64,000 bases of DNA from contig BROI01000011.1 of assembly GCA_027923505.1 (NCBI GenBank), positions 124,001 through 188,000 of the forward strand. The letters run 5' to 3'. The stretch is from Mayamaea pseudoterrestris. Lineage: Eukaryota. The position numbers were made by a program, and so were the translations under genes. Positions 15,592 to 64,000 of the stretch are shown here, in pieces. The stretch's first letter is position 1; each line of letters opens with the position of its first letter. A model generated the notes under the pieces. That model did not search any database. It was given only the letters and a program-made list of their open reading frames with translations, and had not been told where the DNA came from.

Positions 15592-18500
15592 ACTGCGGGC
15601 TGAGACTGGGGATAAGGTCTCATTGCAGTCAACTGAGACCAGCCAGGCATACCATCTTGTAGCACAGCTTAAAGTAATGATGTTGGCACCATTCTGTTGT
15701 AATTTGGGTGTATCCATGACTTCTAAAGAAAAGCATACCATCTTATTACGCAGCCTCAACAATGATGTTGGCATCATTCTGGTGTGATTTGGGTGTACAC
15801 ATGGCTTGCTGTATGGGCGTTTGAATGTCATGGCATCTGCGGGCTGAGACTGGTGACAAGTTGTCACCAATCACATTGCAGTCTTCTAAGACCCCAGCCA
15901 AGCATACCATCTTATTGCGCAGCCTGAATAATGATGTTGGCATCATTCTGGTGTGATTTGGGTGTACACATCACATGCTGTAGGGGCGTTTGAATGTCAA
16001 GGCATCTGCGGGCTGAGACTGGTGACAAGTTGTCACCAATATGATTGCAGTCTTCTGAGACACCATCCAAGCATACCAGCTTGTAGAGCAGCCTGAATAA
16101 TGATGTTGGCATCATTTTGGTGTGATTTGGGTGTATGCATGGCATGCTGTAGGGGCGTTTGAATATTAAGGCATCTGCGGGCTGAGACTGGTGACAAGTT
16201 GTCACCAATATCATTGCAGTCTACTGAGATCCCAGCCAAGCATACCATCTTGTAGCGCAGCCTGAATAATGATGTTGGCATCATTCTGGTGTGATTTGGG
16301 TGTATACATGGCTTGCTGTAGGGGCGTTTGAATGTCAAGGCATCTGCAGGCTCAGACTGGTGACAAGTTGTCACCAATATGATTGCAGTCTACTGAGACC
16401 CCAGCCAAGCATACCATCTTGTAGCGCAGCCTGAATAATGATGTTGGCATCATTCTGGTGTGATTTGGGTGTGCACATGGCTTGCTGTAGGGGCGTTTGA
16501 ATGTCATGGCATCTGCGGGCTGAGACTGGTGACAAGTTGTCACCAATCACATTGCAGTCTACTGAGACACCATCCTAGCATACCAGATTGTAGCGCAGCC
16601 TGAATAATGATGTTGGTATCATTCTGGTGTATTTGGGTGTATGCATGGCTTGCTGTAGGGGCGTTTGAATGTCAAGGCATCTGCAGGCTGAGACTGGTGA
16701 CAAGTTGTCACCAATCACATTGCAGTCTACTGAGACACCATCCAAGCATACCAGCTTGTAGCGCAGCCTGAATAATGATGTTGGCATCATTCTGGTGTGA
16801 TTTGGGTGTATACATGGCTTGCTGTAGGGGCGTTTGAATGTCAAGGCATCTGCAGGCTTAGACTGGCGACAAGTTGTCACCAATATGATTGCAGTCTTCT
16901 GAGACCCCAACCAAGCATACCATCTTATTGCGCAGCCTGAATAACGATGTTGGCATCATTCTGGTGTGATTTGGGTGAACACATGGCTTGCTGTAGGGGC
17001 GTTTGAATGTCATGGCATCTGCGGGCTGAGACTGGTGTCAAGTTGTCACCAATATGATTGCAGTCTACTGAGACACCATCCAAGCATACCAGCTTGTAGC
17101 GCAGCCTGAATAATGATGTTGGCAGCATTCTGGTGTGATTTGGGTGTATACATGGCTTGCTGTAGGGGCGTTTGAATGTCAAGGCTGCATCTGCAGGCTC
17201 AGACTGGTGTCAAGATGTCATTAATATGATTGCAGTCTTCTGAGACCCCAGCCAAGCATACCATCTTGTAGCGCAGCCTGAATAATGATGTTGGCATCAT
17301 TCTGGTGTGATTTGGGTGTATACATGGCTTGCTGTAGGGGCGTTTGAATGTCATGGCATCTGCGGGCTGAGACTGGTGACAAGTTGTCACCAATCACATT
17401 GCAGTCTTCTGAGACCCCAGCCAAGCATACCATCTTATTGCGCAGCCTGAATAATGATGTTGGCATCATTCTGGTGTGATTTGGGTGTACACATGGCTTG
17501 CTGTAGGGGCGTTTGAATGTCAAGGCATCTGCGGGCTGAGACTGGTGACAAGTTGTCACCAATCACATTGCAGTCTACTGAGACACCATCCAAGCATACC
17601 AGCTTGTAGAGCAGCCTGAATAATGATGTTGGCATCATTCTGGTGTGATTTGGGTGTATACATGGCTTGCTGTAGGGGCGTTTGAATGTCAAGGCATCTG
17701 CGGGCTGAGACTGGTGACAAGTTGTCACCAATCACATTGCAGTCTACTGAGACCCCAGCCAAGCATACCATCTTGTAGCGCAGCCTGAATAATGATGTTG
17801 GCATCATTCTGGTGTGATTTGGGTGTATGCATGGCTTGCTGTAGGGGCGTTTGAATGTCAAGGCATCTGCGGGCTGAGACTGGTGACAAGTTGTCACCAA
17901 TCACATTGCAGTCTACTGAGACACCATCCAAGCATACCAGCTTGTAGCGCAGCCTGAATAATGATGTTGGCATCATTCTGGTGTGATTTGGGTGTATACA
18001 TGGCTTGCTGTAGGGGCGTTTGAATGTCAAGGCATCTGCAGGCTGAGACTGGTGACAAGTTGTCACCAATCACATTGCAGTCTACTGAGACACCATCCAA
18101 GCATACCAGCTTGTAGCGCAGCCTGAATAATGATGTTGGCATCATTCTGGTGTGATTTGGGTGTATACATGGCTTGCTGTAGGGGCGTTTGAATGTCAAG
18201 GCATCTGCAGGCTGAGACTGGTGACAAGTTGTCACCAATATCATTGCAGTCTTCTGAGACCCCAGCCAAGCATACCATCTTGTAGCGCAGCCTGAATAAT
18301 GATGTTGGCATCATTCTGGTGTGATTTGGGTGTACACATGGCTTGCTGTAGGGGCGTTTGAATGTCATGGCATCTGCAGGCTGAGACTGGTGACAAGTTG
18401 TCACCAATCACATTGCAGTCTACTGAGACACCAGCCAAGCATACCAGCTTGTAGCGCAGCCTGAATAATGATGTTGGCATCATTCTGGTGTGATTTGGGT

Positions 18501-21500
18501 GTATACATGGCTTGCTGTAGGGGCGTTTGAATGTCAAGGCATCTGCGGGCTGAGACTGGTGACAAGTTGTCACCAATCACATTGCAGTCTACTGAGACAC
18601 CATCCAAGCATACCAGCTTGTAGCGCAGCCTGAATAATGATGTTGGCATCATTCTGGTGTGATTTGGGTGTATACATGGCTTGCTGTAGGGGCGTTTGAA
18701 TGTCAAGGCATCTGCGGGCTGAGACTGGTGACAAGTTGTCACCAATATCATTGCAGTCTTCTGAGACCCCAGCCAAGCATACCAGCTTGTAGAGCAGCCT
18801 GAATAATGATGTTGGCATCATTCTGGTGTGATTTGGGTGTATACATGGCTTGCTGTAGGGGCGTTTGAATGTCAAGGCATCTGCGGGCTGAGACTGGTGA
18901 CAAGTTGTCACCAATATCATTGCAGTCTTCTGAGACACCAGCCAACCATACCAGCTTGTAGCGCAGCCTGAATAATGATGTTGGCATCATTCTGGTGTGA
19001 TTTGGGTGTATACATGGCTTGCTGTAGGGGCGTTTGAATGTCAAGGCTGCATCTGCAGGCTGAGACTGGTGTCAAGTTGTCACCAATATGATTGCAGTCT
19101 TCTGAGACCCCAGCCAAGCATACCATCTTGTTGCGCAGCCTGAATAATGATGTTGGCATCATTCTGGTGTGATTTGGGTGTATACATGGCTTGCTGTAGG
19201 GGCGTTTGAATGTCAAGGCATCTGCGGGCTGAGACTGGTGACAAGTTGTCACCAATATGATTGCAGTCTTCTGAGACCCCAGCCAAGCATACCATCTTGT
19301 TGCGCAGCCTGAATAATGATGTTGGCATCATTCTGGTGTGATTTGGGTGTATACATGGCTTGCTGTAGGGGCGTTTGAATGTCATGGCATCTGCGGGCTG
19401 AGACTGGTGACAAGTTGTCACCAATATCATTGCAGTCTTCTGAGACACCATCCAAGCATACCATCTTGTTGCGCAGCCTGAATAATGATGTTGGCATCAT
19501 TCTGGTGTGATTTGGGTGTATACATGGCTTGCTGTAGGGGCGTTTGAATGTCAAGGCATCTGCGGGCTGAGACTGGTGACAAGTTGTCACCAATAATATT
19601 GCAGTCTTCTGAGACCCCGCCCAAGCATACCATCTTGTAGAGCAGCCTGAATAATGATGTTGGCATCATTCTGGTGTGATTTGGGTGTATACATGGCTTG
19701 CTGTAGGGGCGTTTGAATGTCAAGGCATCTGCGGGCTGAGACTGGTGACAAGTTGTCACCAATATCATTGCAGTCTACTGAGACCCCAGCCAAGCATACC
19801 AGCTTGTAGCGCAGCCTGAATAATGATGTTGGCATCATTCTGGTGTGATTTGGGTGTATACATGGCTTGCTGTAGGGGCGTTTGAATGTCAAGGCATCTG
19901 CGGGCTGAGACTGGTGACAAGTTGTCACCAATATCATTGCAGTCTACTGAGACACACCCTAGCCATGCATACCAGCTTGTAGCGCAGCCTGAATAATGAT
20001 GTTGGCATCATTCTGGTGTGATTTGGGTGTATACATGGCTTGCTGTAGGGGCGTTTGAATGTCAAGGCATCTGCAGGCTGAGACTGGTGACAAGTTGTCA
20101 CCAATATCATTGCAGTCTACTGAGACACCATCCAAGCATACCAGCTTGTAGCGCAGCCTGAATAATGATGTTGGCATCATTCTGGTGTGATTTGGGTGTA
20201 TACATGGCTTGCTGTAGGGGCGTTTGAATGTCAAGGCATCTGCGGGCTGAGACTGGTGACAAGTTGTCACCAATATGATTGCAGTCTTCTGAGACCCCAG
20301 CCAAGCATACCAGCTTGTAGCGCAGCCTGAATAATGATGTTGGCATCATTCTGGTGTGATTTGGGTGTATACATGGCTTGCTGTAGGGGCGTTTGAATGT
20401 CAAGGCATCTGCGGGCTGAGACTGGTGACAAGTTGTCACCAATATCATTGCAGTCTTCTGAGACCCCAGCCAAGCATACCAGCTTGTAGCGCAGCCTGAA
20501 TAATGATGTTGGCATCATTCTGGTGTGATTTGGGTGTATACATGGCTTGCTGTAGGGGCGTTTGAATGTCAAGGCATCTGCAGGCTGAGACTGGTGACAA
20601 GTTGTCACCAATATCATTGCAGTCTACTGAGACACCATCCAAGCATACCATCTTGTAGCGCAGCCTGAATAATGATGTTGGCATCATTCTGGTGTGATTT
20701 GGGTGTATACATGGCTTGCTGTAGGGGCGTTTGAATGTCAACGCATCTGCAGGCTGAGACTGGTGACAAGTTGTCACCAATATCATTGCAGTCTTCTGAG
20801 ACCCCAGCCAAGCATACCATCTTGTAGCGCAGCCTGAATAATGATGTTGGCATCATTCTGGTGTGATTTGGGTGTATACATGGCTTGCTGTAGGGGCGTT
20901 TGAATGTCAAGGCATCTGCGGGCTGAGACTGGTGACAAGTTGTCACCAATATCATGGCAGTCTACTCAGACCCCAGCCAAGCATACCATCTTATTACGCA
21001 GCCTCAACAATGATGTTGGCATCATTCTGGTGTGATTTGGGTGTACACATGGCTTGCTGTATGGGCGTTTGAATGTCATGGCATCTGCGGGCTGAGACTG
21101 GTGACAAGTTGTCACCAATCACATTGCAGTCTTCTAAGACCCCAGCCAAGCATACCATCTTATTGCGCAGCCTGAATAATGATGTTGGCATCATTCTGGT
21201 GTGATTTGGGTGTACACATCACATGCTGTAGGGGCGTTTGAATGTCAAGGCATCTGCGGGCTGAGACTGGTGACAAGTTGTCACCAATATGATTGCAGTC
21301 TTCTGAGACACCATCCAAGCATACCAGCTTGTAGAGCAGCCTGAATAATGATGTTGGCATCATTTTGGTGTGATTTGGGTGTATGCATGGCATGCTGTAG
21401 GGGCGTTTGAATATTAAGGCATCTGCGGGCTGAGACTGGTGACAAGTTGTCACCAATATCATTGCAGTCTACTGAGATCCCAGCCAAGCATACCATCTTG

Positions 21501-24500
21501 TAGCGCAGCCTGAATAATGATGTTGGCATCATTCTGGTGTGATTTGGGTGTATACATGGCTTGCTGTAGGGGCGTTTGAATGTCAAGGCATCTGCAGGCT
21601 CAGACTGGTGACAAGTTGTCACCAATATGATTGCAGTCTACTGAGACCCCAGCCAAGCATACCATCTTGTAGCGCAGCCTGAATAATGATGTTGGCATCA
21701 TTCTGGTGTGATTTGGGTGTGCACATGGCTTGCTGTAGGGGCGTTTGAATGTCATGGCATCTGCGGGCTGAGACTGGTGACAAGTTGTCACCAATCACAT
21801 TGCAGTCTACTGAGACACCATCCTAGCATACCAGATTGTAGCGCAGCCTGAATAATGATGTTGGTATCATTCTGGTGTATTTGGGTGTATGCATGGCTTG
21901 CTGTAGGGGCGTTTGAATGTCAAGGCATCTGCAGGCTGAGACTGGTGACAAGTTGTCACCAATCACATTGCAGTCTACTGAGACACCATCCAAGCATACC
22001 AGCTTGTAGCGCAGCCTGAATAATGATGTTGGCATCATTCTGGTGTGATTTGGGTGTATACATGGCTTGCTGTAGGGGCGTTTGAATGTCAAGGCATCTG
22101 CAGGCTTAGACTGGCGACAAGTTGTCACCAATATGATTGCAGTCTTCTGAGACCCCAACCAAGCATACCATCTTATTGCGCAGCCTGAATAACGATGTTG
22201 GCATCATTCTGGTGTGATTTGGGTGAACACATGGCTTGCTGTAGGGGCGTTTGAATGTCATGGCATCTGCGGGCTGAGACTGGTGTCAAGTTGTCACCAA
22301 TATGATTGCAGTCTACTGAGACACCATCCAAGCATACCAGCTTGTAGCGCAGCCTGAATAATGATGTTGGCAGCATTCTGGTGTGATTTGGGTGTATACA
22401 TGGCTTGCTGTAGGGGCGTTTGAATGTCAAGGCTGCATCTGCAGGCTCAGACTGGTGTCAAGATGTCATTAATATGATTGCAGTCTTCTGAGACCCCAGC
22501 CAAGCATACCATCTTGTAGCGCAGCCTGAATAATGATGTTGGCATCATTCTGGTGTGATTTGGGTGTATACATGGCTTGCTGTAGGGGCGTTTGAATGTC
22601 ATGGCATCTGCGGGCTGAGACTGGTGACAAGTTGTCACCAATCACATTGCAGTCTTCTGAGACCCCAGCCAAGCATACCATCTTATTGCGCAGCCTGAAT
22701 AATGATGTTGGCATCATTCTGGTGTGATTTGGGTGTACACATGGCTTGCTGTAGGGGCGTTTGAATGTCAAGGCATCTGCGGGCTGAGACTGGTGACAAG
22801 TTGTCACCAATCACATTGCAGTCTACTGAGACACCATCCAAGCATACCAGCTTGTAGAGCAGCCTGAATAATGATGTTGGCATCATTCTGGTGTGATTTG
22901 GGTGTATACATGGCTTGCTGTAGGGGCGTTTGAATGTCAAGGCATCTGCGGGCTGAGACTGGTGACAAGTTGTCACCAATCACATTGCAGTCTACTGAGA
23001 CCCCAGCCAAGCATACCATCTTGTAGCGCAGCCTGAATAATGATGTTGGCATCATTCTGGTGTGATTTGGGTGTATGCATGGCTTGCTGTAGGGGCGTTT
23101 GAATGTCAAGGCATCTGCGGGCTGAGACTGGTGACAAGTTGTCACCAATCACATTGCAGTCTACTGAGACACCATCCAAGCATACCAGCTTGTAGCGCAG
23201 CCTGAATAATGATGTTGGCATCATTCTGGTGTGATTTGGGTGTATACATGGCTTGCTGTAGGGGCGTTTGAATGTCAAGGCATCTGCAGGCTGAGACTGG
23301 TGACAAGTTGTCACCAATCACATTGCAGTCTACTGAGACACCATCCAAGCATACCAGCTTGTAGCGCAGCCTGAATAATGATGTTGGCATCATTCTGGTG
23401 TGATTTGGGTGTATACATGGCTTGCTGTAGGGGCGTTTGAATGTCAAGGCATCTGCAGGCTGAGACTGGTGACAAGTTGTCACCAATATCATTGCAGTCT
23501 TCTGAGACCCCAGCCAAGCATACCATCTTGTAGCGCAGCCTGAATAATGATGTTGGCATCATTCTGGTGTGATTTGGGTGTACACATGGCTTGCTGTAGG
23601 GGCGTTTGAATGTCATGGCATCTGCAGGCTGAGACTGGTGACAAGTTGTCACCAATCACATTGCAGTCTACTGAGACACCAGCCAAGCATACCAGCTTGT
23701 AGCGCAGCCTGAATAATGATGTTGGCATCATTCTGGTGTGATTTGGGTGTATACATGGCTTGCTGTAGGGGCGTTTGAATGTCAAGGCATCTGCGGGCTG
23801 AGACTGGTGACAAGTTGTCACCAATCACATTGCAGTCTACTGAGACACCATCCAAGCATACCAGCTTGTAGCGCAGCCTGAATAATGATGTTGGCATCAT
23901 TCTGGTGTGATTTGGGTGTATACATGGCTTGCTGTAGGGGCGTTTGAATGTCAAGGCATCTGCGGGCTGAGACTGGTGACAAGTTGTCACCAATATCATT
24001 GCAGTCTTCTGAGACCCCAGCCAAGCATACCAGCTTGTAGAGCAGCCTGAATAATGATGTTGGCATCATTCTGGTGTGATTTGGGTGTATACATGGCTTG
24101 CTGTAGGGGCGTTTGAATGTCAAGGCATCTGCGGGCTGAGACTGGTGACAAGTTGTCACCAATATCATTGCAGTCTTCTGAGACACCAGCCAACCATACC
24201 AGCTTGTAGCGCAGCCTGAATAATGATGTTGGCATCATTCTGGTGTGATTTGGGTGTATACATGGCTTGCTGTAGGGGCGTTTGAATGTCAAGGCTGCAT
24301 CTGCAGGCTGAGACTGGTGTCAAGTTGTCACCAATATGATTGCAGTCTTCTGAGACCCCAGCCAAGCATACCATCTTGTTGCGCAGCCTGAATAATGATG
24401 TTGGCATCATTCTGGTGTGATTTGGGTGTATACATGGCTTGCTGTAGGGGCGTTTGAATGTCAAGGCATCTGCGGGCTGAGACTGGTGACAAGTTGTCAC

Positions 24501-27500
24501 CAATATGATTGCAGTCTTCTGAGACCCCAGCCAAGCATACCATCTTGTTGCGCAGCCTGAATAATGATGTTGGCATCATTCTGGTGTGATTTGGGTGTAT
24601 ACATGGCTTGCTGTAGGGGCGTTTGAATGTCATGGCATCTGCGGGCTGAGACTGGTGACAAGTTGTCACCAATATCATTGCAGTCTTCTGAGACACCATC
24701 CAAGCATACCATCTTGTTGCGCAGCCTGAATAATGATGTTGGCATCATTCTGGTGTGATTTGGGTGTATACATGGCTTGCTGTAGGGGCGTTTGAATGTC
24801 AAGGCATCTGCGGGCTGAGACTGGTGACAAGTTGTCACCAATAATATTGCAGTCTTCTGAGACCCCGCCCAAGCATACCATCTTGTAGAGCAGCCTGAAT
24901 AATGATGTTGGCATCATTCTGGTGTGATTTGGGTGTATACATGGCTTGCTGTAGGGGCGTTTGAATGTCAAGGCATCTGCGGGCTGAGACTGGTGACAAG
25001 TTGTCACCAATATCATTGCAGTCTACTGAGACCCCAGCCAAGCATACCAGCTTGTAGCGCAGCCTGAATAATGATGTTGGCATCATTCTGGTGTGATTTG
25101 GGTGTATACATGGCTTGCTGTAGGGGCGTTTGAATGTCAAGGCATCTGCGGGCTGAGACTGGTGACAAGTTGTCACCAATATCATTGCAGTCTACTGAGA
25201 CACACCCTAGCCATGCATACCAGCTTGTAGCGCAGCCTGAATAATGATGTTGGCATCATTCTGGTGTGATTTGGGTGTATACATGGCTTGCTGTAGGGGC
25301 GTTTGAATGTCAAGGCATCTGCAGGCTGAGACTGGTGACAAGTTGTCACCAATATCATTGCAGTCTACTGAGACACCATCCAAGCATACCAGCTTGTAGC
25401 GCAGCCTGAATAATGATGTTGGCATCATTCTGGTGTGATTTGGGTGTATACATGGCTTGCTGTAGGGGCGTTTGAATGTCAAGGCATCTGCGGGCTGAGA
25501 CTGGTGACAAGTTGTCACCAATATGATTGCAGTCTTCTGAGACCCCAGCCAAGCATACCAGCTTGTAGCGCAGCCTGAATAATGATGTTGGCATCATTCT
25601 GGTGTGATTTGGGTGTATACATGGCTTGCTGTAGGGGCGTTTGAATGTCAAGGCATCTGCGGGCTGAGACTGGTGACAAGTTGTCACCAATATCATTGCA
25701 GTCTTCTGAGACCCCAGCCAAGCATACCAGCTTGTAGCGCAGCCTGAATAATGATGTTGGCATCATTCTGGTGTGATTTGGGTGTATACATGGCTTGCTG
25801 TAGGGGCGTTTGAATGTCAAGGCATCTGCAGGCTGAGACTGGTGACAAGTTGTCACCAATATCATTGCAGTCTACTGAGACACCATCCAAGCATACCATC
25901 TTGTAGCGCAGCCTGAATAATGATGTTGGCATCATTCTGGTGTGATTTGGGTGTATACATGGCTTGCTGTAGGGGCGTTTGAATGTCAACGCATCTGCAG
26001 GCTGAGACTGGTGACAAGTTGTCACCAATATCATTGCAGTCTTCTGAGACCCCAGCCAAGCATACCATCTTGTAGCGCAGCCTGAATAATGATGTTGGCA
26101 TCATTCTGGTGTGATTTGGGTGTATACATGGCTTGCTGTAGGGGCGTTTGAATGTCAAGGCATCTGCGGGCTGAGACTGGTGACAAGTTGTCACCAATAT
26201 CATTGCAGTCTTCTGAGACCCCAGCCAAGCATACCATCTTGTTGCGCAGCCTGAATAATGATGTTGGCATCATTCTGGTGTGATTTGGGTGTATACATGG
26301 CTTGCTGTAGGGGCGTTTGAATGTCAAGGCATCTGCGGGCTGAGACTGGTGACAAGTTGTCACCAATATCATTGCAGTCTTCTGAGACACCATCCAAGCA
26401 TACCATCTTGTTGCGCAGCCTGAATAATGATGTTGGCATCATTCTGGTGTGATTTGGGTGTATACATGGCTTGCTGTAGGGGCGTTTGAATGTCAAGGCT
26501 GCATCTGCAGGCTGAGACTGGTGTCAAGTTGTCACCAATATCATTGCAGTCTTCTGAGACACCCGCCAAGCATACCAGCTTGTAGAGAAGCCTAAATAAT
26601 GATGTTGGCATCATTCTGGTGTGATTTGGGTGTATACATGGCTTGCTGTAGGGGCGTTTGAATGTCAAGGCATCTGCGGGCTGAGACTGGTGACAAGTTG
26701 TCACCAATATCATTGCAGTCTACTGAGACACCATCCAAGCATACCATTTGTAGAGCAGCCTGAATAATGATGTTGGCATCATTCTGGTGTGATTTGGGTG
26801 TATACATGGCTTGCTGTAGGGGCGTTTGAATGTCAAGGCATCTGCGGGCTGAGACTGGTGACAAGTTGTCACCAATATGATTGCAGTCTACTGAGACACC
26901 ATCCAAGCATACCATCTTGTAGCGCAGCCTGAATAATGATGTTGGCATCATTCTGGTGTGATTTGGGTGTATACATGGCTTGCTGTAGGGGCGTTTGAAT
27001 GTCAAGGCATCTGCGGGCTGAGACTGGTGACAAGTTGTCACCAATATCATTGCAGTCTTCTGAGACACCATCCAAGCATACCATCTTGTAGCGCAGCCTG
27101 AATAATGATGTTGGCATCATTCTGGTGTGATTTGGGTGTATACATGGCTTGCTGTAGGGGCGTTTGAATGTCAAGGCATCTGCGGGCTGAGACTGGTGAC
27201 AAGTTGTCACCAATATGATTGCAGTCTACTGAGACCCCAGCCAAGCATACCATCTTGTAGCGCAGCCTGAATAATGATGTTGGCATCATTCTGGTGTGAT
27301 TTGGGTGTATACATGGCTTGCTGTAGGGGCGTTTGAATGTCAAGGCATCTGCGGGCTGAGACTGGTGACAAGTTGTCACCAATATCATTGCAGTCTTCTG
27401 AGACCCCAGCCAAGCATACCATCTTGTTGCGCAGCCTGAATAATGATGTTGGCATCATTCTGGTGTGATTTGGGTGTATACATGGCTTGCTGTAGGGGCG

Positions 27501-30500
27501 TTTGAATGTCAAGGCATCTGCGGGCTGAGACTGGTGACAAGTTGTCACCAATATGATTGCAGTCTACTGAGACACCATCCAAGCATACCAGCTTGTAGAG
27601 CAGCCTGAATAATGATGTTGGCATCATTCTGGTGTGATTTGGGTGTATACATGGCTTGCTGTAGGGGCGTTTGAATGTCAAGGCATCTGCAGGCTGAGAC
27701 TGGTGACAAGTTGTCACCAATATCATTGCAGTCTTCTGAGACCCCAGCCAAGCATACCATCTTGTAGCGCAGCCTGAATAATGATGTTGGCATCATTCTG
27801 GTGTGATTTGGGTGTATACATGGCTTGCTGTAGGGGCGTTTGAATGTCAAGGCATCTGCGGGCTGAGACTGGTGACAAGTTGTCACCAATATCATTGCAG
27901 TCTTCTGAGACCCCAGCCAAGCATACCATCTTGTAGCGCAGCCTGAATAATGATGTTGGCATCATTCTGGTGTGATTTGGGTGTATACATGGCTTGCTGT
28001 AGGGGCGTTTGAATGTCAAGGCATCTGCGGGCTGAGACTGGTGACAAGTTGTCACCAATATCATTGCAGTCTTCTGAGACACCATCCAAGCATACCAGCT
28101 TGTAGCGCAGCCTGAATAATGATGTTGGCATCATTCTGGTGTGATTTGGGTGTATACATGGCTTGCTGTAGGGGCGTTTGAATGTCAAGGCATCTGCGGG
28201 CTGAGACTGGTGACAAGTTGTCACCAATATCATTGCAGTCTTCTGAGACCCCAGCCAAGCATACCAGCTTGTAGCGCAGCCTGAATAATGATGTTGGCAT
28301 CATTCTGGTGTGATTTGGGTGTATACATGGCTTGCTGTAGGGGCGTTTGAATGTCAAGGCATCTGCGGGCTGAGACTGGTGACAAGTTGTCACCAATATG
28401 ATTGCAGTCTACTGAGACACCATCCAAGCATACCAGCTTGTAGCGCAGCCTGAATAATGATGTTGGCATCATTCTGGTGTGATTTGGGTGTATACATGGC
28501 TTGCTGTAGGGGCGTTTGAATGTCAAGGCATCTGCGGGCTGAGACTGGTGACAAGTTGTCACCAATATCATTGCAGTCTACTGAGACACCATCCAAGCAT
28601 ACCATCTTGTAGCGCAGCCTGAATAATGATGTTGGCATCATTCTGGTGTGATTTGGGTGTATACATGGCTTGCTGTAGGGGCGTTTGAATGTCAAGGCAT
28701 CTGCGGGCTGAGACTGGTGACAAGTTGTCACCAATATCATTGCCGTCTTCTAAGACACCAGCCAAGCATTCCAGCTTGTAGAGCAGCCTGAATAATGATG
28801 TTGGCATCATTCTGGTGTGATTTGGGTGTATGCATGGCTTGCTGTAGGGCGTTTGAATGTCAAGGCATCTGCAGGCTGAGACTGGTGACAAGTTGTCACC
28901 AATATCGATGTCTGCGCAGCCTGAATAATGATGTTGGCATCATTCTGGTGTGATTTGGGTGTATACATGGCTTGCTGTAGGGGCATTTGAATGTCAAGGC
29001 ACCTGCAAGCTGAGACTGGTGACAAGTTGTCACCAATATCATTGCAGTCTTCTGAGACACCAGCCAAGCATACCAGCTTGTAGAGCAGCCTCAAGAATGA
29101 TGTTGGCATCATTCTGGTGTGATTTGGTTGTATTCATGGCTTGCTGTAGGGGCGTTTCAATGTCAAGGCATCTGCAGGCTGAGACTGGTGACAAGTTGTC
29201 ACCAATATCATTGCAGTCTGCTGAGACACCATCCAATCATACCAGCTTGTAGAGCAGCCTGAATAATGATGTTGGCATCATTCTGGTGTGATTTGGGTGT
29301 ATACATGGCTTGCTGTAGGGGCGTTTGAATGTCAAGGCATCTGCGGGCTGAGACTGGTGACAAGTTGTCACCAATATCATTGCAGTCTTCTGAGACCATA
29401 GCCTAGCATACCAGCTTGTTGCTTAGCCACAATAATGATTTTGGCATCATTCTGGTGTGACTTGGGTGTATACATGGCTTGCTGTAGGGGCATTTGAATG
29501 TCAAGGCATCTGCGGGCTGAGACTGGTGACAAGTTGTCACCAATCACATTGCAGTCAACTGACACACTATCCAAGCATACCAGCTTGTAGAGCAGCCTGA
29601 TTAATGATGTTGGCATCATTTTGGTGTGATTTGGGTGTATAAATGGCTTGCTGTAGGGGCGTTTGAATGTAAAGGCATCTGCAGGCTGAGACTGGTGACA
29701 AGTTGTCACCAATATCATTGCAGTCTTCTGAGACCTTGGCCAAGCATACCATCTTGTTGCGCAGCCTGAATGATGATGTTGGCATCATTCTGGTGTGATT
29801 TGGGTGTATACATGGCTTGCTGTAGGGGCGTTTGAATGTCAAGGCATCTGCGGGCTGAGACTGGTGACAAGTTGTCACCAATCACATTGCAGTCTACTGA
29901 GACACCATCCAAGCATACCAGCTTGTAGAGCAGCCTGAATAATGATGTTGGCATCATACTGGTGTGATTTGGGTGTATACATGGCTTGCTGTAGGGGCAT
30001 TTGAAAGTCAAGGCATCTGCGGGCTGAGACTGGTGACAAGTTGTCACCAATATCATTGCAGTCTTTTGAGACACCCACCAAGCATACCAGCTTGTAGTGC
30101 AGCCTGAATAATGATGTTGGCATCATTCTGGTGTGATTTGGGTGTATACATGGCTTGCTGTAGGGGCGTTTGAATGTCAAGGCATCTGCGGGCTGAGACT
30201 GGTGACAAGTTGTCACCAATATCATTGCAGTCTTCTGAGACCCCGGCCAAGCATACCATCTTGTTGCGCAGCCTGAATAATGATGTTGGCATCATTCTGG
30301 TGTGATTTGGGTGTATACATGGCTTGCTGTAGGGGCGTTTGAATGTCAAGGCATCTGCGGGCTGAGACTGGTGACAAGTTGTCACCAATATCATTGCAGT
30401 CTTCTGAAACACCCACCAATCATAACAGCTTGTAGCGCAGCCTGAATAATGATGTTGGCATCATTCTGGTGTGATTTGGGTGTATACATGGCTTGCTGTA

Positions 30501-31600
30501 GGGGCATTTGAATGTCAAGGCATCTGCGGGCTGAGACTGGTGACAAGTTGTCACCAATATCATTGCAGTCTTCTGAGACACCTGCCAAGCATACCAGCTT
30601 GTAGATCAGCCTGAATAATGATGTTGGCATCATTCTGGTGTGATTTGGGTGTATACATGACTTGCTGTAGGGGTGTTGGAATGTCAAGGCATCTGCGGGC
30701 TGAGACTGGTGACAAGTTGTCACCAATATCATTGCAGTCTTCTGAGACCCCGGCCAAGCATACCATCTTGTTGCGCTGCCTGAATAATGATGTTGGCATC
30801 ATTCTGGTGTGATTTGGGTGTATACATGGCTTGCTATAGGGGCGTTTGAATGTCAAGGCATCTGCGGGCTGAGACTGGTGACAAGTTGTCACCAATCACA
30901 TTGCAGTCTACTGAGACACCAGCCAAGCATACCAGCTTGTTGCTTAGCCTCAATAATGATTTTGGCATCATTCTGGTGTGATTTGGGTGTATACATGGCT
31001 TGCTGTAGGGGCATTTGAATGTCAAGGGATCTGTGGGTTGAGACTGGTGACAAGTTGTCACCAATAACATTGCAGTCTACTGAGACACCAGCCAAGTATA
31101 CTATCTTGTTGCGCAGCCTCAATAATGATGTTGGGACCATTCTGGTGTGATTTGGGTGTATACATGGCTTGCTGTAAGTGCGTTTGAATGTTTGCCAAGG
31201 CATTTGCAGGCTGAGACTGGTGACAAGTTGTCACCAATATCATTGCAGTATTCTGAGACACCAGCCAAGCACACCATCTTCTTGCGCAGCCTCAAGAATG
31301 ATGTTGGCATCATTCTGGTGTGATTTGGGTGTATACGTGGCTTGCTGTAGGGGTGTTTGAATGTCAAGGCATCTGCGGGCTGAGACTGGTGACAAGTTGT
31401 CACCAATCACATTGCAGTCTTCTGAGACACCAGTCAAGCATACCATCTTGTAGAGTAGCCTCAATAATGATGTTGGCATCATTCTGGTGTGATTTGGGTG
31501 TATAAATGGCTTGCTGTAGGGGCGTTTAAATGTCAAGGCATCTGCGGGCTGAGACTGGTGACAAGTTGTCACCAGTCACATTAGCCACTGAGACACCAGT
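15592..31600 (+). repeat. Satellite array A: 169-bp monomer, ~95 copies
   Basis: Head-to-tail recurrence every 169 bp; homogeneous core with diverged edges. Confidence 0.99.
15731..26203 (+). repeat. 5248-bp (31-monomer) tandem block duplication inside array A
   Basis: 15731-20955 recurs at 20979-26203 with the same rare variants; the ORF track is identical at offset 5248. Confidence 0.93.
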
Positions 31601-31610
31601 AAAAAATTCA

Positions 31611-31694
31611 TTTCTTAAGCCATGTATATACCCAAGGGACACAAGAATGGTGCCAACATGGTATGCCTATACCCAGATGGTGTCTCGTTAGACT
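31611..31694 (-). repeat. Inverted, internally deleted copy of the 169-bp monomer closing array A (TIR-like)
   Basis: AAGCCATGTATATACCCAA..AGAATGGTGCCAACATGGTATGCCT..GATGGTGTCTC is the reverse complement of the monomer. Confidence 0.85.
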
Positions 31695-34129: not shown

Positions 34130-37100
34130 CAATTTAAAAGTGGACTATGTGCCACATAGAAAGGAAGCTCTGCTATGAATCCCAACCAATCAAACTATGG
34201 CCCTGATTGTCTCTTTATCCATTGCTACCTTTAGAAAAGTTATAATTGAGGTGCTATGACACATACAATTTTAATCAACTCATGCTTTTTAAGCAAAACA
34301 GAAGTAAATAGGCTGTATTGCCATGCAACTGTATGCCGTGCAGTAGCAGCGGCAGCACACCAAGAACCTTGGACAACTCCATCATTTACAGCATTGCCAC
34401 CTTCAACCAAGGTATTGGTAAGGTTACACAACTTTACAGATTTGGCGGTCATGCATATCCTTCAAGTGTTGGGAATAGATTTGCTAGCTTCCACATAGCT
34501 AAGGAGCATGCTGCCACACCATGCCACACCATACCCAGCGGCCCGACAAACCACAGAGCTGTGGGAGTAGATGTGCTACTCGGCAAGGAAGCTCTGCTTA
34601 CAAGTCCAAACCAATCAAAAGAAGGCCCTGATTGTCTTGGTAGCCATTTCCACCTCTAGTAAGGGTATAAGTGAGGTACTATGACACATTCAATTTAGGT
34701 CAACTCATGTTTTTAAAGCAAAACAGGAGTAGATAGGCTGTATTGCCATGCAACTGTATGTCATGCAGCAGCAGCAGCGGCAGCGCACCAAGAATGTTGG
34801 CCATCTCCATCATTTGAAGCATTGCCACCTTCAACCCAGCTACTAATGCGGTGAAATGACCTTTACATATTTGGCGGTCATGCATATACGTCAAGTGTTG
34901 GGAATAGATCTGCTAGCTTCCACATAGCTAAGTAGCATGCTGCCACACCACAAAACACCACACCTAGTTGCTCTGGACATCCCCATCAAATATAAGCATT
35001 GCCACCATGGGCCAAACTATCAATGAAGCCTACAAAACCAAACAAACCTGGCAAGCTCAAGTTTTGGGAAAGCTGTGGGAGTAGATGGGCCAAATAGAAC
35101 AACAGCGCAGTCTATGAATCCAAACCAAACAAACTATGGCTCTGATTGTCATTTTAGCCAATGCCACCATTCAACAAGGTATACGTGAGCTACTATGACA
35201 CATGCATTGTTGGACAATTCATGTGTGCCTGGCAAAACAGGAGTAGATACACTGTATTTTGTGCGACTGTATGTCACACAGCAGCAGCGGCAGCACCCGC
35301 AAAACTTTGGCCATCCCCATCATGTGAAGCATTCCCACCTTTCAAAAAGCTTTTGGTATGGTCAGTCAACCTCTACAACCTTGGCGGTCATGCAAATCCT
35401 TCAAGTTTTGGGAGTAGACATGCTAGCTTCCACATAGCTAAGTATCCCATATGTCGCCACACCACACCACGCCACCAGGTATGCTGGGCATCCCCATCAA
35501 TAACCAACATAGCCACCATGGGCCAAACTATCAATAAGGCCAACTAAACCAAACAAACCTGGCAAGCTCAAGTTTTGGGAAAGCCGTGGGAGTAGATGGG
35601 CCAGATAGAACAACAGCGCAGTCAATGAATCCAAACCAATCAAACTATGGCTCTGATTGTCATTTTAGCCATTGCCACCTTTTGACAAGATATACATGAA
35701 GTACTATGACACATTCAATGTTGGACAACTCATGTGTTCCTGGCAAAATAGGAGTAGATACGCTGTATTTTGTGCGACTGTATGTCACGCAGCAGCAATC
35801 GCAGCAGCAATGGCAGCACCCGCAAACTTTGGCCATCCCCATCATGTGAAGCATTCCCACCTTTCAAAAAGCCTTTGGAATGGTCAATCAACCTTTACAA
35901 CCTTGGCGGTCTTGCAAATCCTTTAAGTTTTGTGAGTAGACATGCGAGCTTCCACATAGCTAAGCATCCCATACGTCGCCACACCACACCACACCACCAG
36001 CTCCGCTGGGCATCCCCATCAATTACCAACATTGCCACCATGGGCCAAACTATCAATGAGGCCTACAAAACCAAACAAACCTGGCAAGCTCAAGTTTTGG
36101 GAAAGCTGTGGGAGTAGATGGGCCAAATAGAACAACAGCACAGTCTGTGAATCCAAACCAATCAAACTTTCGCTCTGATTGTCATTTTAGCCAATGCCAC
36201 CTTTCAACAAGGTATACGTGAGCTACTATGACACTTTCAATGTTGGACAACACATGTGTTCCTGGCAAAACAGGAGTAGATACGCTGTATTTTGTGCGAC
36301 GGTATGTCACACACAACAGCAGCGGCAGCACCCGCAAAACTTTGGCCATCCCCATCATGTGAAGCATTCACACCTTTCAAAAAGCTTTTGGTATGGTCAA
36401 TCCACCTCTACAACCTTGGCGGTCATGCAAATCCTTCAAGTTTTGGGGTTAGACATGCAAGCTTCCACATAGCTAAGTATCCCATATGTCGCCACACCAC
36501 ACCTTGCTACCAGGTCTGCTGGGCATCCCCATCCATTACCAACATTGCCACCATGAGCCAAACTATCAATGAGACCAACAAAACCAAACAAACCTGGCAA
36601 GCTCAAGTTTTGGGAAAGCTGAGGGAGTAGATGGGCCAAATAGAACAACAGCGCAGTCTATGAATCCAAACCAATCAAACTATGGCTCTGATTGTCATTT
36701 TAGCCATTGCCACCTTTTGACAAGATATACATGAAGTACTATGACACATTCAATGTTGGACAACTCATGTGTTCCTGGCAAAACAGGAGTAGATACGCTG
36801 TCTTTTGTGCGACTGTATGTCACACAGCAGCAGCGGCAGCACCCGCAAAACTTTGGCCATCCCCATCATGTGAAGCATTCCCACCTTTCAATAAGCTTTT
36901 GGTATGGTCAATCAACTTCTACAACCTTGGCGGTCATGCAAATCCTTCAAGTTTTGGGAGTAGACATGCTGGCTTCCACATAGCTAAGTATCCCGTATGT
37001 CGCCACACCACACCACCAGGTCCGCTGGGCATCCCCATCAATTACCAACATTGCCACCATGGGCCAAACTATCAATGAGGCCTACAAAACCAAACAAACC

Positions 37101-44510: not shown

Positions 44511-44652
44511 ATGGGCGACCGTAGGGCAATCGAACGAAAGTCGCAATATCGTACCGTGACTCGCTTTTAGTCATTCGCCACGCAAAAATGGCACGGGCGA
44601 AGAACGACCATGGCGACCATACCGATTATTCTGCCGACGACAATCACCCAAT

Positions 44653-45537
44653 ATGAGCGACCCTAGAGCTTCGATGCATCATTCACATACAGATACAACT
44701 GCATTTAATACAAGCAGAGATGTAGCTACTGTGTCATGTAGTCCGCTGACGAGCGCATCGAGTACCCAAGCCGTCTCACCAAGAGCAGCACCTACATCAT
44801 TCATATTCGCCTACGGCTCGCTCATTTGTCCTCATAGTCGCGCCTTGACAGCTCCATCCATGGCGAACGTGCAAGCCATTCCAGTCCGCGTCTCTCACTT
44901 GGAGCGCCATTTCAGCATGCCGACTGGATCATGGACCGCCATGGGCGTCAGGTATCGACGCCACGCCACCTGCGTTGGCGTTTTGCTCGCAGTGACCAAG
45001 CAGGAGCTCCGACGGTTCGACAAGCGCGAGCTTGGTTATGATCGCAATCTACTTCCGCCGGAGCATGTCGAGTATTTGGAAAATGATGGTAATGTTCAGC
45101 AGCAGCATATGGATGCAGAATCTGCACCGCCCAAACTAATTTGGGTCTACATTCAGCAACGGCACGTTCCGCCGTCAATACGAAACCCCATTGCGCAAAG
45201 CTACGTTGACATTATACTGCGCGGGTGTTTGACCATTTCCGAAGATTTCGCCAAGGAATTCATCTTGACGACGGGTGGATGGTACATTGCTAGTGGCGAT
45301 GCGGCTACATATAAGATTTTCGATGCGAAACAACCTGCAACTGCTACATTCGACCGAGCCACGGCAAACGGCGAGCGGCAGCAGATGCAAGTACATTGGG
45401 TGAATGATCGGCACGATCCTCTCTACATTCGGGCCGACGCTGAGTATTCGATGCAAGCCGCTCGCGTTTTGGATGCATTGCTGCAGCTGCTCGTACCGCT
45501 GGCCATGGAGCGCCGAAAAGTGTATGGAAAATCTTGA
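44653..45537 (+). CDS. Gamma-glutamylcyclotransferase-like (GGCT/ChaC fold) protein
   Basis: FAYGSL motif, FDKRELGYDR, and QSYVDIILRGC. Confidence 0.75.
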   Translation: MSDPRASMHHSHTDTTAFNTSRDVATVSCSPLTSASSTQAVSPRAAPTSFIFAYGSLICPHSRALTAPSMANVQAIPVRVSHLERHFSMPTGSWTAMGVRYRRHATCVGVLLAVTKQELRRFDKRELGYDRNLLPPEHVEYLENDGNVQQQHMDAESAPPKLIWVYIQQRHVPPSIRNPIAQSYVDIILRGCLTISEDFAKEFILTTGGWYIASGDAATYKIFDAKQPATATFDRATANGERQQMQVHWVNDRHDPLYIRADAEYSMQAARVLDALLQLLVPLAMERRKVYGKS

Positions 45538-45956
45538 CTATGACGCTATCATGCATTTGACAACGGTTATACAACTTGACAGCATGATTTTGTGCTTTTT
45601 GACGCAGCGCAGGCATCTATCATTTGTGACAATGACTGCACAAGATCTTGCTTCAGCTTCATCTGACGCAATGGCACCGCGATTGTTAGCGCTGACTATC
45701 TAAATTAAACAATTTATGTTCGCGTACACACAATGTATAATTTGGTATTGGAAGCCCTTGATGTTTGTACGCGTAGCTCCTTTGAACAGCAGTGAATAAT
45801 CAATCAAGTACCGGTCCGTCATTAATATCGATACGACATATTTCCGACGTGTTGGAACGACATCCATCACTCCTTTTTCTTGCCGACATTTCATCACATC
45901 CATCGCACCTTTATACAAATTCTTCAGCTCCAGTCAGGCCACTGATATATTTCATC

Positions 45957-47306
45957 ATGACAGCGAACAAAGTGGGTTTGGATCAAAGCAGTGAACCCAT
46001 CCGAGCAGTAGTAGTCACTGACGCCAGTGCCGAAGAACAATCGTCGTCACACACGGACGATGCAGGTCAAGCTGCTGCTGCCGATGACGACGACAAGGTA
46101 GAAGCTTCGTTCCAAAACGAAAATGAGTGGGAAGATTCCTTCCTAGACTTTGCGCAAAGCAAACATCCTGTCACTGGAAAGTTTGTCATGACGATGGAGC
46201 GGCTACTCTGGCTGCAAAGGCAAGAAGCTGCGTATGCACATCGTCAGCATGCCTTGTCGGACGATCGATTGCGAAAGCTTCAAAGTCTCGGGTTCTTTGC
46301 GAAGGACAAGTCTCTATCACCGTCATCGCCTGTAATGACGACTAAAACAGCGTCTTTGGCCGGAGCTACACCAGTGCTGTCAACGACAGCGCCATCCATT
46401 CACCATGCTTCGACAAGCAAGAAAGTGACAGATGACATGAAGAAAGTGACAGATGACATGAAGAGTGGTCACAATGCTACTGTGCAGAGTATGAAACGAG
46501 TGCGTTCGGAATCTGATGCTGACGGCCAAGCTCGCCCATCAAAAGCTGCCTGTTTGGCTCTTGACACTAGCGAGAAAGACGCGGGAAAGCCACTAAATGT
46601 CTCAAATGATTTCACCTCGGTGATGGCTAAATCTGCTACAACCTTAGTTTTGACTCCGGAAATACAGCGTCTCATAAAGCTACAGCAGCTAGTTACGAGC
46701 TTTGCTGCGTCCGCTAGACCTGGTGACAAAGCGTATGTTGGGATTGGTCTCACCAACCTTGAACGCCATTTCGTCAGGGATGAATTGAAAAAATACGGTT
46801 CTGACTTTTGCGTGAATCTGAAAGGTAATCTTGTTGAGATTGCATTAAATGCTTCATTGAACGAGGGACCAGGCTTGGTGACTTGTCCGACACAATCGGA
46901 CTCGTCATCCCATACCTTATCGCGAACAGGCAATGGTGCCCAAATTTGGGTTGTAAACAGTCAATATAAAAAACGATTCCACAAGTACCAATCCATGCCC
47001 AAGCCATCCAGTATTGGAGCTATGCCCTCGGTTGAGCGCAACGGGCAAAAACGGCCAATGTGCATCTCCTATCATGTCCGAGGCCAATGTAGCGCCAGTT
47101 GTAAACGGAGCTACGATCATAAACTCCACTCTTTGGAGGAGGACGAGCAATTGGCGAGCTGGTGTGCGCAAGCATTTACTTTCAAGCATGTTGTGATGGC
47201 TCCGGTCAGGTCGAGCACGCAACCAGTCAAAGATTTTGCCACGTTGCTCGACGAGCTTGCCGCAAAAAGCGCTGGCGAACACAGTGAGAAAGAATCGTGC
47301 AGTTAA
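45957..47306 (+). CDS. Hypothetical protein with helicase-associated (HA)-like, R3H-like and CCCH-like segments
   Basis: WLQRQ..LSDDRLRKLQSLGF (HA-like); LTNLERHFV (R3H-like); CISYHVRGQCSASCKRSYDH (zinc finger-like). Confidence 0.6.
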   Translation: MTANKVGLDQSSEPIRAVVVTDASAEEQSSSHTDDAGQAAAADDDDKVEASFQNENEWEDSFLDFAQSKHPVTGKFVMTMERLLWLQRQEAAYAHRQHALSDDRLRKLQSLGFFAKDKSLSPSSPVMTTKTASLAGATPVLSTTAPSIHHASTSKKVTDDMKKVTDDMKSGHNATVQSMKRVRSESDADGQARPSKAACLALDTSEKDAGKPLNVSNDFTSVMAKSATTLVLTPEIQRLIKLQQLVTSFAASARPGDKAYVGIGLTNLERHFVRDELKKYGSDFCVNLKGNLVEIALNASLNEGPGLVTCPTQSDSSSHTLSRTGNGAQIWVVNSQYKKRFHKYQSMPKPSSIGAMPSVERNGQKRPMCISYHVRGQCSASCKRSYDHKLHSLEEDEQLASWCAQAFTFKHVVMAPVRSSTQPVKDFATLLDELAAKSAGEHSEKESCS

Positions 47307-61569: not shown

Positions 61570-62360
61570 AATGCTAAAGAGCATGCATGGGATTCTTGCT
61601 GAAGCAGGCAAGTTGTACAAAGTCATTTCCTTGTTGCTAAATACTCATAAACTTATTCCCAGAAAAAGTAGCCTTGAGGCCTGTCAAACAACAGCTCTGA
61701 GCTTGACTATGGGAAATTTTTGTGGAGAGCATGAACATCTTGCACGAGAACCATGATAGAGCAGCTATGTCTTGCAAGATCACTTCCTTGTTGCATGAGA
61801 CTGGCTCTTTGATTCCCGGAATGAGTGTCTGTAGCCTTGGAGCCAACAACCCACTGCTCGGAGCTTGACCATATTTCAACTTTGTGGAGCACATTAAGAG
61901 CATGCTTGAGATCCTTGTTGGAGCAGCAAAGTTTTTGCAAGGTCACTTTCATGTTGCATGAGACTGATTTTTTGACTCCCGGAATGAGTGTCTGTGGCCT
62001 TGGAGCCTGCCAGACCACTGCGCTGAGCTTGATCATAGATCAACTTTGTGGAGCACATTACATCATGCATGAGAACCATGATAAAGCAGCTATATCTTGC
62101 AAGGACACTTCCTTGTTGCATGAGACTGACTTGTTGATTCCTGGAATGAGTGTCTGTAGCCTTGGAACCTGCCAGACCACTGTGCTGAGCTTGATCATGG
62201 ATTAACATTGTGGAGCGCATTTACCGCATGCGTGTGATTCTTGTTACAGCAGCCAAGTCTTGTAAGGTCACATTCATGTTGCATGAGACAGATCTTTTCA
62301 TTCCCAGAATTGTTGTCTGTAGCCTTGGAGCCAGCCATGCCATGGCGCTGAGCTTTATCA
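61570..62360 (+). repeat. Diverged satellite C: ~163-bp monomer (alternating A/B, ~325-bp dimer), ~4.5 copies
   Basis: TTGCATGAGAC at 61791, 61954, 62116 and 62279. Confidence 0.9.
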
Positions 62361-62361
62361 T

Positions 62362-64000
62362 AACTCCGCACATTCAACAAGTGGTTGAATGTGCCAGCGT
62401 TGCACCCTTTTTGGCTACAAGAACCAGCAGTGTTGCCAGTTGTGCCCTCCCATCCATTTCAGTTCATGTTTGGTATCATGATGGGTCAATGTTTATGTCA
62501 GTTGCACCCATTCCAGTCTCCACCACCATGTATGCCATGGTGAGACTCAGCAGGTTGTTGGATCTGCTAGCAGTGCACCTCAAGTGGCACTTCAGACTGC
62601 CAGAATGACTTGACAAATCTGGAATACAAAGAGAATACGTTTTTCATATTGATTGGGACCCACAGACTTGTCAGTTTGGGTGTGGAAGCCAACACTTTGC
62701 CCTGAGATTCCACACATTCAACAAGTGGTTGAATGTGCCAGCGGTGCACCCTTTTTGGCCACAAGAACCATCAGTGTTGCCAGTTGAGCCCTCCAATCCA
62801 TTTCAATTCATGTTTGGTGTCATGATGGGCCAATGCTTAGGTCAGTTGCATCCATTCCAGTCTCCACCACCATGTATGCCATGGTGAGACTCAGCAGGTT
62901 GTTGGATCTGCTAGCAGTGCACCTCAAGTGGCACTTCAGACTGCCAGAATGGCCTGACAACTCTGGAATACAAAGAAAAACGTTTTTATATTGATTGAGA
63001 CTCATAGACTTGTCAGTTTGGGTGTGGAAACCAACACTTTGCCCTGAGACTCCGCACATTCAACAAGTGGTTGAATGTGCCAGTGGTGCACCCTTTTTGG
63101 CCACAAGAACCAACAGTGTTGCCAGTTGAGCCCTCCAATTCATTTTATTTCATGTTTGGTGTCATGATGGGCCAATGCTTAGGTCAGTCACACCCATTCC
63201 AGTCTCCACCACCATGTATGCCATTGTGAGACTCAGCAGGTTGTTGGATCTGCTAGCAGTGCACCTCAAGTGGCACTTCAGACTGCCAGAATGGCCTGCC
63301 AATTTTGGAATACAAAGAGAATACGTTTTTATATTGATTGGGACTCATAGACTTGTCAGTTTGGGTGTGGAAGCCAACTTTTTGCCCTGAGACTCCGCAC
63401 ATTCAACAAGTGGTTGAATGTGCCAGCGGTGCACCCTTTTTGGCCACAAGAACCATCAGTGTTGCCAGATGAGCCCTCCAATCCATTTCTTTTGATGTTT
63501 GGTGTCATGATGGGCCAATGCTTAGATCAGTTGCATCCATTCCAGTCTCCACCACCATGTATGCCATGGTGAGACTCTGCAGGTTGTTGGATCTGCTAGC
63601 AGTGCACCTCATGTGGCACTTCAGACTGCCAGAATGGCCTGCCAAATCTGGAATACAAAGAGAATACGTTTTTTATATTGATTGGGACCCACAGACTTGT
63701 CAGTTTGGGTGTGGAAGCCAACACTTTGCCCTGAGATTCCACACATTCAACAAGTGGTTGAATGTGCCAGCGGTGCACCCTTTTTGGCCACAAGAACCAT
63801 CAGTGTTGCCAGTTGAGCCCTCCAATCCATTTCAATTCATGTTTGGTGTCATGATGGGCCAATGCTTAGGTCAGTTGCATCCATTCCAGTCTCCACCACC
63901 ATGTATGCCATGGTGAGACTCAGCAGGTTGTTGGATCTGCTAGCAGTGCACCTCAAGTGGCACTTCAGACTGCCAGAATGGCCTGACAACTCTGGAATAC
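62362..64000 (+). repeat. Satellite array D: ~343-bp unit, at least 4.7 copies, runs off the window
   Basis: CATTCAACAAGTGG at 62371, 62715, 63057, 63400 and 63744. Confidence 0.97.

Follow-up and report, generated by a model that had tools for sequence, protein, structure and literature searches.

Satellite families of nucleosome-like unit length and a matching 174-bp G+C rhythm in the genome of the diatom Mayamaea pseudoterrestris

The genome of the diatom Mayamaea pseudoterrestris contains eleven satellite families, in at least nine groups that are non-alignable as judged by sequence comparison, and the units or sub-units of all of them are 162–188 bp long. DNA that is free of satellites, genes included, carries a G+C rhythm of 174 bp, which is a new observation. 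The stretch under study (the window) comprises 64,000 nucleotides of contig BROI01000011.1 in assembly GCA_027923505.1 (G000:C11:124001–188000; 30.63 Mb, 41 contigs), and holds five arrays, of families A–E. The frequent coincidence of satellite unit length with that of one nucleosome has long lacked an agreed explanation, and arguments about it have mostly drawn on a single family in each species. In this small, culturable genome about a dozen families follow the rule, and the organism's own genes supply an independent, agreeing estimate of nucleosome spacing.

Unit length across the genome

Tandem periods were surveyed in an even sample of 60 evenly spaced 7-kb stretches and in a blind sample of 40 stretches of 6 kb picked regardless of repeats. 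In the even sample, periods of 160–185 bp account for 14.95% of bases and periods of 320–372 bp for 1.09%, against 0.13% at 186–319 bp and 0.29% at 100–149 bp; no bases of this sample lie in tandem periods of 150–159 bp or above 372 bp. The two major classes hold 13.3% and 2.2% of bases in the blind sample. The period histogram, proposed as a check by a first-pass annotation made from the letters of the window, is thus far from flat, being concentrated at 160–185 bp and its doubles. That annotation had held that length rather than sequence is constrained; the survey, together with family clustering, extends this to the whole genome.

With the family library, 17.1% of the even sample is satellite (bootstrap 9–26%; 19 of 60 stretches touched), a value that is probably a floor because contigs end in arrays. 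Twenty island edges translate into about 24 islands per Mb, or some 700 genome-wide and about one per 40 kb. The distribution is uneven: satellite makes up 7.8% of sampled bases for the eight largest contigs (C1–C8) and 24.7% for the remaining ones. Family A dominates, with 11.6% of the even sample and a presence on most contigs.

Clustering yielded ten families in the samples and the window, and an eleventh from targeted stretches. The 21 units and sub-units have a mean length of 175.6 ± 7.1 bp and the 11 family means average 174.4 ± 6.7 bp, error-rich stretches (L125 and L133) being omitted from the count. Since D has a 356-bp unit at most loci elsewhere, the lengths form a spread of 162–188 bp and not one exact period. 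Exceptions to the length class are an 8-bp microsatellite, coding repeats and one repeat of 359–382 bp in three copies, which has the length of two units and in which an internal repeat was not detected. The microsatellite reaches 115 copies between or beside A arrays (L134:2251–3185 and L135:6678–7146), and once lies between two oppositely oriented A arrays. Off-size units make up 25 of 747 A intervals; they measure 85–380 bp, are all single and never occur twice in a row, while variants of 166–173 bp do recur.

Families, higher-order units and kinship

No pair among families A–E reaches z 2 in calibrated local alignment, no profile match among them exceeds reversed controls, and BLASTN returned no cross-family matches among the families; the earlier remark that the families do not align therefore stands for A–E, as no homology was detected by these searches.

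Two of the five window families have composite units, as the first-pass annotation had proposed from their lengths (162 + 171 + 178 and about 173 + 170 bp). B shows internal similarity at lags of 171/340 and 162/349 bp, two motifs recur in it at spacings of 171, 178 and 162 bp, and its sub-units align at about 60% over 68–107 bp. D shows internal similarity at lags of 173/170 bp. Splitting the units gave scores above 200 of 200 shuffles for both (B, z 10.4; D, z 8.3), whereas no internal repeat was found in six monomer families by the same split test with 200 shuffles. The split test alone leaves the number of sub-units unfixed; the lags fix it, so that B is an old trimer and D an old dimer. 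Although identity between sub-units has fallen to about 60% in B and D, their lengths stay at 162–187 bp. Length has been held while sequence was lost, whether or not the families are related.

Because the B and D sub-units are themselves near the detection limit, old kinship among families may exist, and faint similarities detailed below suggest that some families are old relatives. Homology of A and F by motif order was considered and rejected, the alignment being not significant (z 1.0–1.6). One locus has a chimeric unit, where an A-like segment of about 90 bp takes the place of part of F in approximate register (L131:1948–2298).

A 174-bp rhythm in satellite-free DNA

Power spectra of G+C content were computed on the DNA left after masking of satellites and other tandem repeats, using the 222 of 260 2-kb windows with normal CpG and without short-word repeats. 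The spectrum peaks at 173.9 bp, at 1.60 times the fitted background (bootstrap 172–178 bp and 1.43–1.77). A harmonic at 85–88 bp was not found in these 222 windows, which speaks against hidden repeats, since these would produce one. The peak persists in the median spectrum and when the strongest tenth of windows is removed. It is also present in 172 windows at loci without any satellite (173.9 bp, 1.52) and in 28 fresh windows (166.7 bp, 1.45). Long open reading frames (ORFs; 188 windows) peak at 175.8 bp (1.35); by codon position, the rhythm reaches 1.19 at third, 1.12 at first and 0.99 at second positions. Ten 60-bp block shuffles gave at most 1.23. Bacterial DNA taken through the same pipeline (661 windows from 80 loci) gave 1.01; none of 500 subsamples exceeded 1.20, and a set matched in G+C (87 windows) gave 1.04.

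The rhythm agrees with the mean unit length of the families, 174 bp. In Tetrahymena, coding G+C is reported to oscillate at about 200 bp, with a repeat length of 199 bp by micrococcal nuclease sequencing (MNase-seq) (PMC4617968), and on that precedent we infer that the 174-bp rhythm corresponds to the nucleosome repeat length. In the stramenopile Nannochloropsis the nucleosome repeat length is given as 178 bp (PMC12744764); a measured value for any diatom was not found in the literature. The link to nucleosome spacing drawn in the first-pass annotation thus gains independent support, although the rhythm is a proxy and not an MNase measurement.

CpG depletion and a putative DNA methylase

Observed/expected CpG is 0.12–0.32 in the five arrays and 1.08–1.16 in gene regions, and recovers within about 300 bp of array edges. 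Among 55 non-duplicated A units, 21 transitions fall at 6 CpG sites and 33 at 76 other C/G sites, CpG having been lost by way of transitions. In Phaeodactylum, loss of DNMT5 is reported to remove CG methylation (PMC9998398). The Mayamaea genome holds three C5-methylase matches. One of its ORFs (L260:829–3327) matches PDB entry 7r76 and three sister entries (E 5e-40), which we take to be Cryptococcus DNMT5. The CpG loss and these matches are indirect signs of methylation, consistent with a DNMT5-like enzyme that would methylate and silence the islands.

Spread of satellite islands

A family A dimer (3529..3859, minus strand; two units less 7 bp) is inserted in the coding sequence of a transmembrane leucine-rich-repeat (LRR) gene of diatom type (2901..4550, minus strand), which forms one continuous frame in an empty haplotype. 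This dimer is a sixth satellite piece of the window, outside the span of the first-pass annotation. In this one case 12 bp were replaced and no target-site duplication was made. The empty allele is seen in a short-read contig of half single-copy depth (run X1) that joins position 3524 to 3861 through 12 other letters; it has a single open frame, with no stop within the 12 letters. Because 27 of about 290 letters differ between this contig and the window, it represents a diverged haplotype, or possibly a paralogue. A contig from another study (run X2) leaves the LRR gene and includes 41 bp of satellite. In two studies the short-read contigs comprise both flanking unique DNA and, at very high depth, the satellite; runs X4 and X5 contain the satellite only. 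The small replacement without target duplication fits break repair. Insertion without target-site duplication is also seen in the Helentron-borne repeats known as HINE, and is equally expected of break repair.

Satellite edges have also been copied together with their surroundings. A block at 43985..46591 (plus strand) begins within B, crosses E and enters the next genes; it recurs at G000:C23:485931 onward (also L136) with 90.8% identity over at least 2,630 bp. A junction of A, a 20-bp telomere-like motif and F is identical at three interstitial loci on two contigs (L016:2249, L127:5561 and L137:1467), as though all three derived from one healed break. An E array with both flanks is duplicated between contigs C2 and C12 at 96–98% (L058 and L268).

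Of 51 island flanks, no more than 8 have a match in another flank: four share a long terminal repeat (LTR)-like repeat near reverse transcriptase matches, and the others are segmental copies. Family-specific conserved left and right flanks of the HINE type, with subterminal inverted repeats, were not found among these 51. Helitron-like ORFs of 1,823–2,373 amino acids occur at four loci; two are CpG-depleted and two other matches are not (stretches L261, L262 and L265–L268). Carriage of the satellites by Helitrons is not supported, since few flanks are shared and families lie near these ORFs at chance level. The 359–382-bp repeat adjoins a Helitron-like ORF on contig C25. Copia-type reverse transcriptase matches are numerous (150 of 308 candidates were scored).

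Centromere question

Arrays of the eleven families lie at many places per contig and have a G+C content of 45–49%. Phaeodactylum CENH3 peaks are described as low-G+C stretches of 2.4–5.6 kb, usually a single one on each chromosome (10.1101/096016), and centromere candidates of Fistulifera as being without high-copy repeats (10.1101/2021.11.10.468027). For Ectocarpus, retrotransposon centromeres are reported along with a subtelomeric satellite of 98 bp (PMC11541908). The arrays do not resemble the short Phaeodactylum-type regions rich in 100-bp windows of at most 32% G+C, and no such low-G+C box was found in 121 stretches, about 3% of the genome. A divergent histone H3 is encoded at G000:C2:130344 (L111:1453–1782); its best solved-structure matches are ordinary H3. 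Some of its features are typical of CENH3, and we treat it as a candidate. The centromeric reading offered in the first-pass annotation does not suit most arrays, which are many per contig, but may hold for the largest, because contigs break in satellites.

The window and its arrays

Tandem Repeats Finder (TRF), lag scans and BLAST recovered all five arrays where the first-pass annotation had placed them, and its estimate of about 45% satellite proved accurate (45.5%). This share compares with 17% in the genome sample and 1.5% in the neighbouring 60 kb. The contig starts with a telomere tract, the sole one returned by a telomere pattern search, and ends within a B array.

Family A fills 15592..31599 (plus strand) with about 94 copies of a 169-bp unit, 91–95% alike; of 94 units measured, 81 are exactly 169 bp. 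Within it a block of 31 monomers (about 5.25 kb) has recently been duplicated in tandem (15764..26260, plus strand, right end approximate), with 99% identity or more in 30 pairs of monomers separated by a lag of 31. This duplication may be real or a mis-join. Every A unit contains an internal palindrome with 8-bp arms (15843–15871 in the window), and a weaker palindrome is present in D. Just past the right end of the array lies a short, diverged A fragment in inverted orientation (31617..31659, minus strand). A terminal-inverted-repeat element around A was rejected, as the inverted piece recurs as a flank nowhere else. Family B occupies 34147..44210 (plus strand) with about 19 copies of a 511-bp unit (171 + 178 + 162 bp). 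Family E follows at 44216..44510, with fewer than two copies of about 174 bp; elsewhere it forms long arrays on many other contigs. Family C (61580..62362, plus strand) comprises about five diverged copies of 162–163 bp. Family D (62363..64000, plus strand; 342–344 bp, from 173 + 170 bp) is nested inside C: it extends past the window to 64279, and C resumes at 64312–64760.

Between the arrays lie compact eukaryotic genes, with family matches in 15 of 20 scanned ORFs, including aminopeptidase, SAP-domain, TPR, LITAF, eIF2D-like, phosphatase and oxidoreductase families. The ORF adjoining array A (11095–14649; 1,184 amino acids) has several SAP domains and a coding repeat of 57–60 bp. The suggestion of a diatom-like genome is borne out by the LRR protein, whose two nearest Atlas clusters are mostly Bacillariophyta, and by the oxidoreductase, whose closest named homologue (92%) belongs to the pennate diatom M. 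pseudoterrestris.

Discussion

We favour, with a probability of roughly 0.55, the explanation that the islands are methylated satellite DNA, which spreads through repair-like copying and whose amplification is restricted to the nucleosome register. Unit length would be set by nucleosome spacing, at about 174 bp. New islands would arise during break repair, when an existing array is copied or an excised piece of one is captured. Growth of the arrays would rely on out-of-register exchange or replication restart. Either would work best with a slip of one nucleosome step, so that only units near nucleosome length would be amplified, whatever their sequence. A DNMT5-type enzyme would methylate and silence the islands. 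The length rule would in that case reflect chromatin mechanics acting as a filter on DNA that is otherwise selfish, and no centromere function would be needed.

Several results weigh against this explanation. It takes its nucleosome spacing from the G+C rhythm as a proxy and not from direct chromatin data. Controls for the spectrum are shuffled sequence and bacterial loci (picked through a chance 17-mer) alone, and the G+C profile aligned at the presumed start codons of 168 ORFs is weak, with a peak nearer 200 bp. The base-weighted period counts are dominated by family A, and the single off-size units are moderate evidence only, because most sequence variants in arrays are rare anyway. Within the units, 10-bp dinucleotide periodicity is at chance level (3–4 of 60 tests at p < 0.05) and a one-cycle G+C profile is absent in 15 of 15. 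The 5′ ends of A arrays were clustered just before the internal palindrome in a first batch (14 ends, R 0.66, p ~0.002), but an independent batch showed no clustering (17 ends, R 0.15, p 0.69); the pooled p of 0.025 includes the ends that prompted the idea. These ends were read by hand, with stretch edges omitted and a thrice-copied junction counted once, and a simulation revealed no BLAST end bias. Cutting at a fixed linker position is unsupported, because the clustering failed in the independent batch. The description of the satellites as nucleosome-phased is thus not supported by any of the three tests (10-bp, one-cycle G+C and breakpoint clustering).

The faint similarities between families belong with a different account, in which length is inherited: most families would go back to a single ancient unit of about 175 bp, or to a handful, perhaps the internal repeat of a Helitron-type element, and length would be only weakly constrained. 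The best of 78 calibrated pairs outside a family is E–H (z 4.3), with a profile match of 12.6 bits against at most 7.7 for reversed controls; an F variant scores z 5.0 against J; and among 55 pairs, shared 9-mers give p 0.003 for F–J and 0.013 for A–F, tested on dinucleotide shuffles. These marginal links speak for old kinship and against the favoured explanation. Inherited length also draws on the B and D sub-units, already near the detection limit, and on the A-like piece in register within an F unit at one locus. Helitron-like ORFs are present at four loci, and oyster families of 140–180 bp are reported to ride Helentron elements (PMC7492417). However, divergence past alignability should have widened lengths by insertions and deletions beyond a standard deviation of 7 bp. 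Family-specific flanks are lacking (8 of 51 shared, four via the LTR-like repeat), known families lie within 10 kb of one of the four Helitron-like ORFs, about what chance gives at one island per 40 kb, and the match of unit length to the rhythm of unique DNA is left unexplained. We regard inheritance of length as unlikely.

Excision offers a further origin, which is compatible with the favoured explanation: nucleosome-sized pieces cut in linkers would circularise, amplify by rolling circle and reinsert, with length fixed at birth. In its favour, reinsertion after rolling-circle amplification has been proposed (PMC8122249), the LRR insertion falls 7 bp short of two units, and a 1-kb array exceeds six units by 6 bp. 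Other arrays start and end in different phases, though, and their ends are not reproducibly clustered; moreover, the dimers and trimers are diverged monomer repeats and not unique two- or three-nucleosome pieces. Birth by excision therefore strikes us as rather improbable. That the arrays are artefacts of assembly, or come from a contaminating plant or animal, is scarcely credible: a mis-join may account for the near-perfect 5.25-kb duplication in A, and two fetched stretches look error-rich, but arrays directly join diatom-type genes, the run X2 contig bridges a gene–satellite junction, and the short-read contigs of both studies contain the satellite with its unique flanks.

Selection for a function could also fix unit length. 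Some families would then bear CENH3 nucleosomes, the largest arrays being regional centromeres with spill-over islands, or the islands, some 40 kb apart, would serve as holocentromere units like Tyba in Rhynchospora, whose repeat units of 172 and 182 bp are similar in length (10.64898/2026.01.17.700053). The candidate CENH3-like H3, the contigs that end in arrays, behind which long arrays may be hidden, and, weakly, the missing low-G+C box in about 3% of the genome are in keeping with this. Yet eleven families of 45–49% G+C, randomly nested at about 24 islands per Mb, speak against it; the gene-inserted dimer acts as selfish DNA, and the loss of CpG suggests heterochromatin. In Phaeodactylum each chromosome has a single short low-G+C region that carries CENH3 (10.1101/096016), and Tyba, as described, is one family spaced at least 247 kb apart (10.64898/2026.01.17.700053). 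A selected function thus appears doubtful. It is very unlikely that the islands are CENH3-loaded, dispersed (holocentric or polycentric) centromere modules, placed about every 40 kb and replacing the short AT-rich Phaeodactylum type; if they were, nucleosome length and not sequence would be the common identity of a dozen unrelated families.

With many families and an independent estimate of spacing at hand, one MNase-seq experiment and one CENH3 chromatin immunoprecipitation can separate chromatin mechanics, centromere selection and inheritance. The G+C spectrum may itself allow nucleosome spacing to be read from nothing more than a diatom assembly. Satellite DNA can make up about one sixth of a diatom genome, and in this diatom satellites break genes and seed gene-carrying duplications. 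We found no report of comparable diatom satellites or of holocentric diatoms in a literature coverage that lacked most subscription papers. The main text of the M. pseudoterrestris genome paper is without the terms 'satellite', 'tandem' and 'centromer', and assigns repeats mainly to Copia; its supplementary repeat table may bear on the matter (PMC9724779). Such terms are absent too from a paper annotating 49 genomes (PMC12159174).

Comparison with known systems

According to a review, most satellite units are either of nucleosome length or of 5–10 bp (PMC8122249). The satellites described here share unit length, dimers and trimers, block duplication and putative methylation scars with the nucleosome-length satellites of plants and animals; those form a few very large blocks, whereas here hundreds of interstitial islands are scattered through a gene-dense protist genome. 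The Pacific oyster Cg_HINE system (PMC7492417) is alike in having many families, some of them unrelated and mostly of 160–180 bp, genome-wide and without target-site duplication. Its arrays are reported as short (mostly at most five units), as 0.85% of the assembly and as lying between conserved Helentron flanks, whereas here arrays reach tens of kilobases, account for 17% of the 30.6-Mb genome and lack common family flanks.

Tyba of Rhynchospora (10.64898/2026.01.17.700053) likewise consists of many discrete arrays of 172/182-bp units among genes. It is described as one conserved family with proven CENH3 binding and a spacing of 247 kb to 1.4 Mb; here there are 11 families about 40 kb apart, known from sequence alone. 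The centromeres of Phaeodactylum and Fistulifera belong to the same organism group, but are reported as short, low in G+C, non-repetitive and one per chromosome, whereas the present arrays are repetitive. Finally, Tetrahymena resembles Mayamaea in a compositional rhythm of nucleosome-like period in coding DNA, third codon positions included. There the period of 199 bp is reported as confirmed by MNase-seq (PMC4617968); here a spacing of 174 bp is inferred and set beside the unit lengths of the satellites, with which it agrees.

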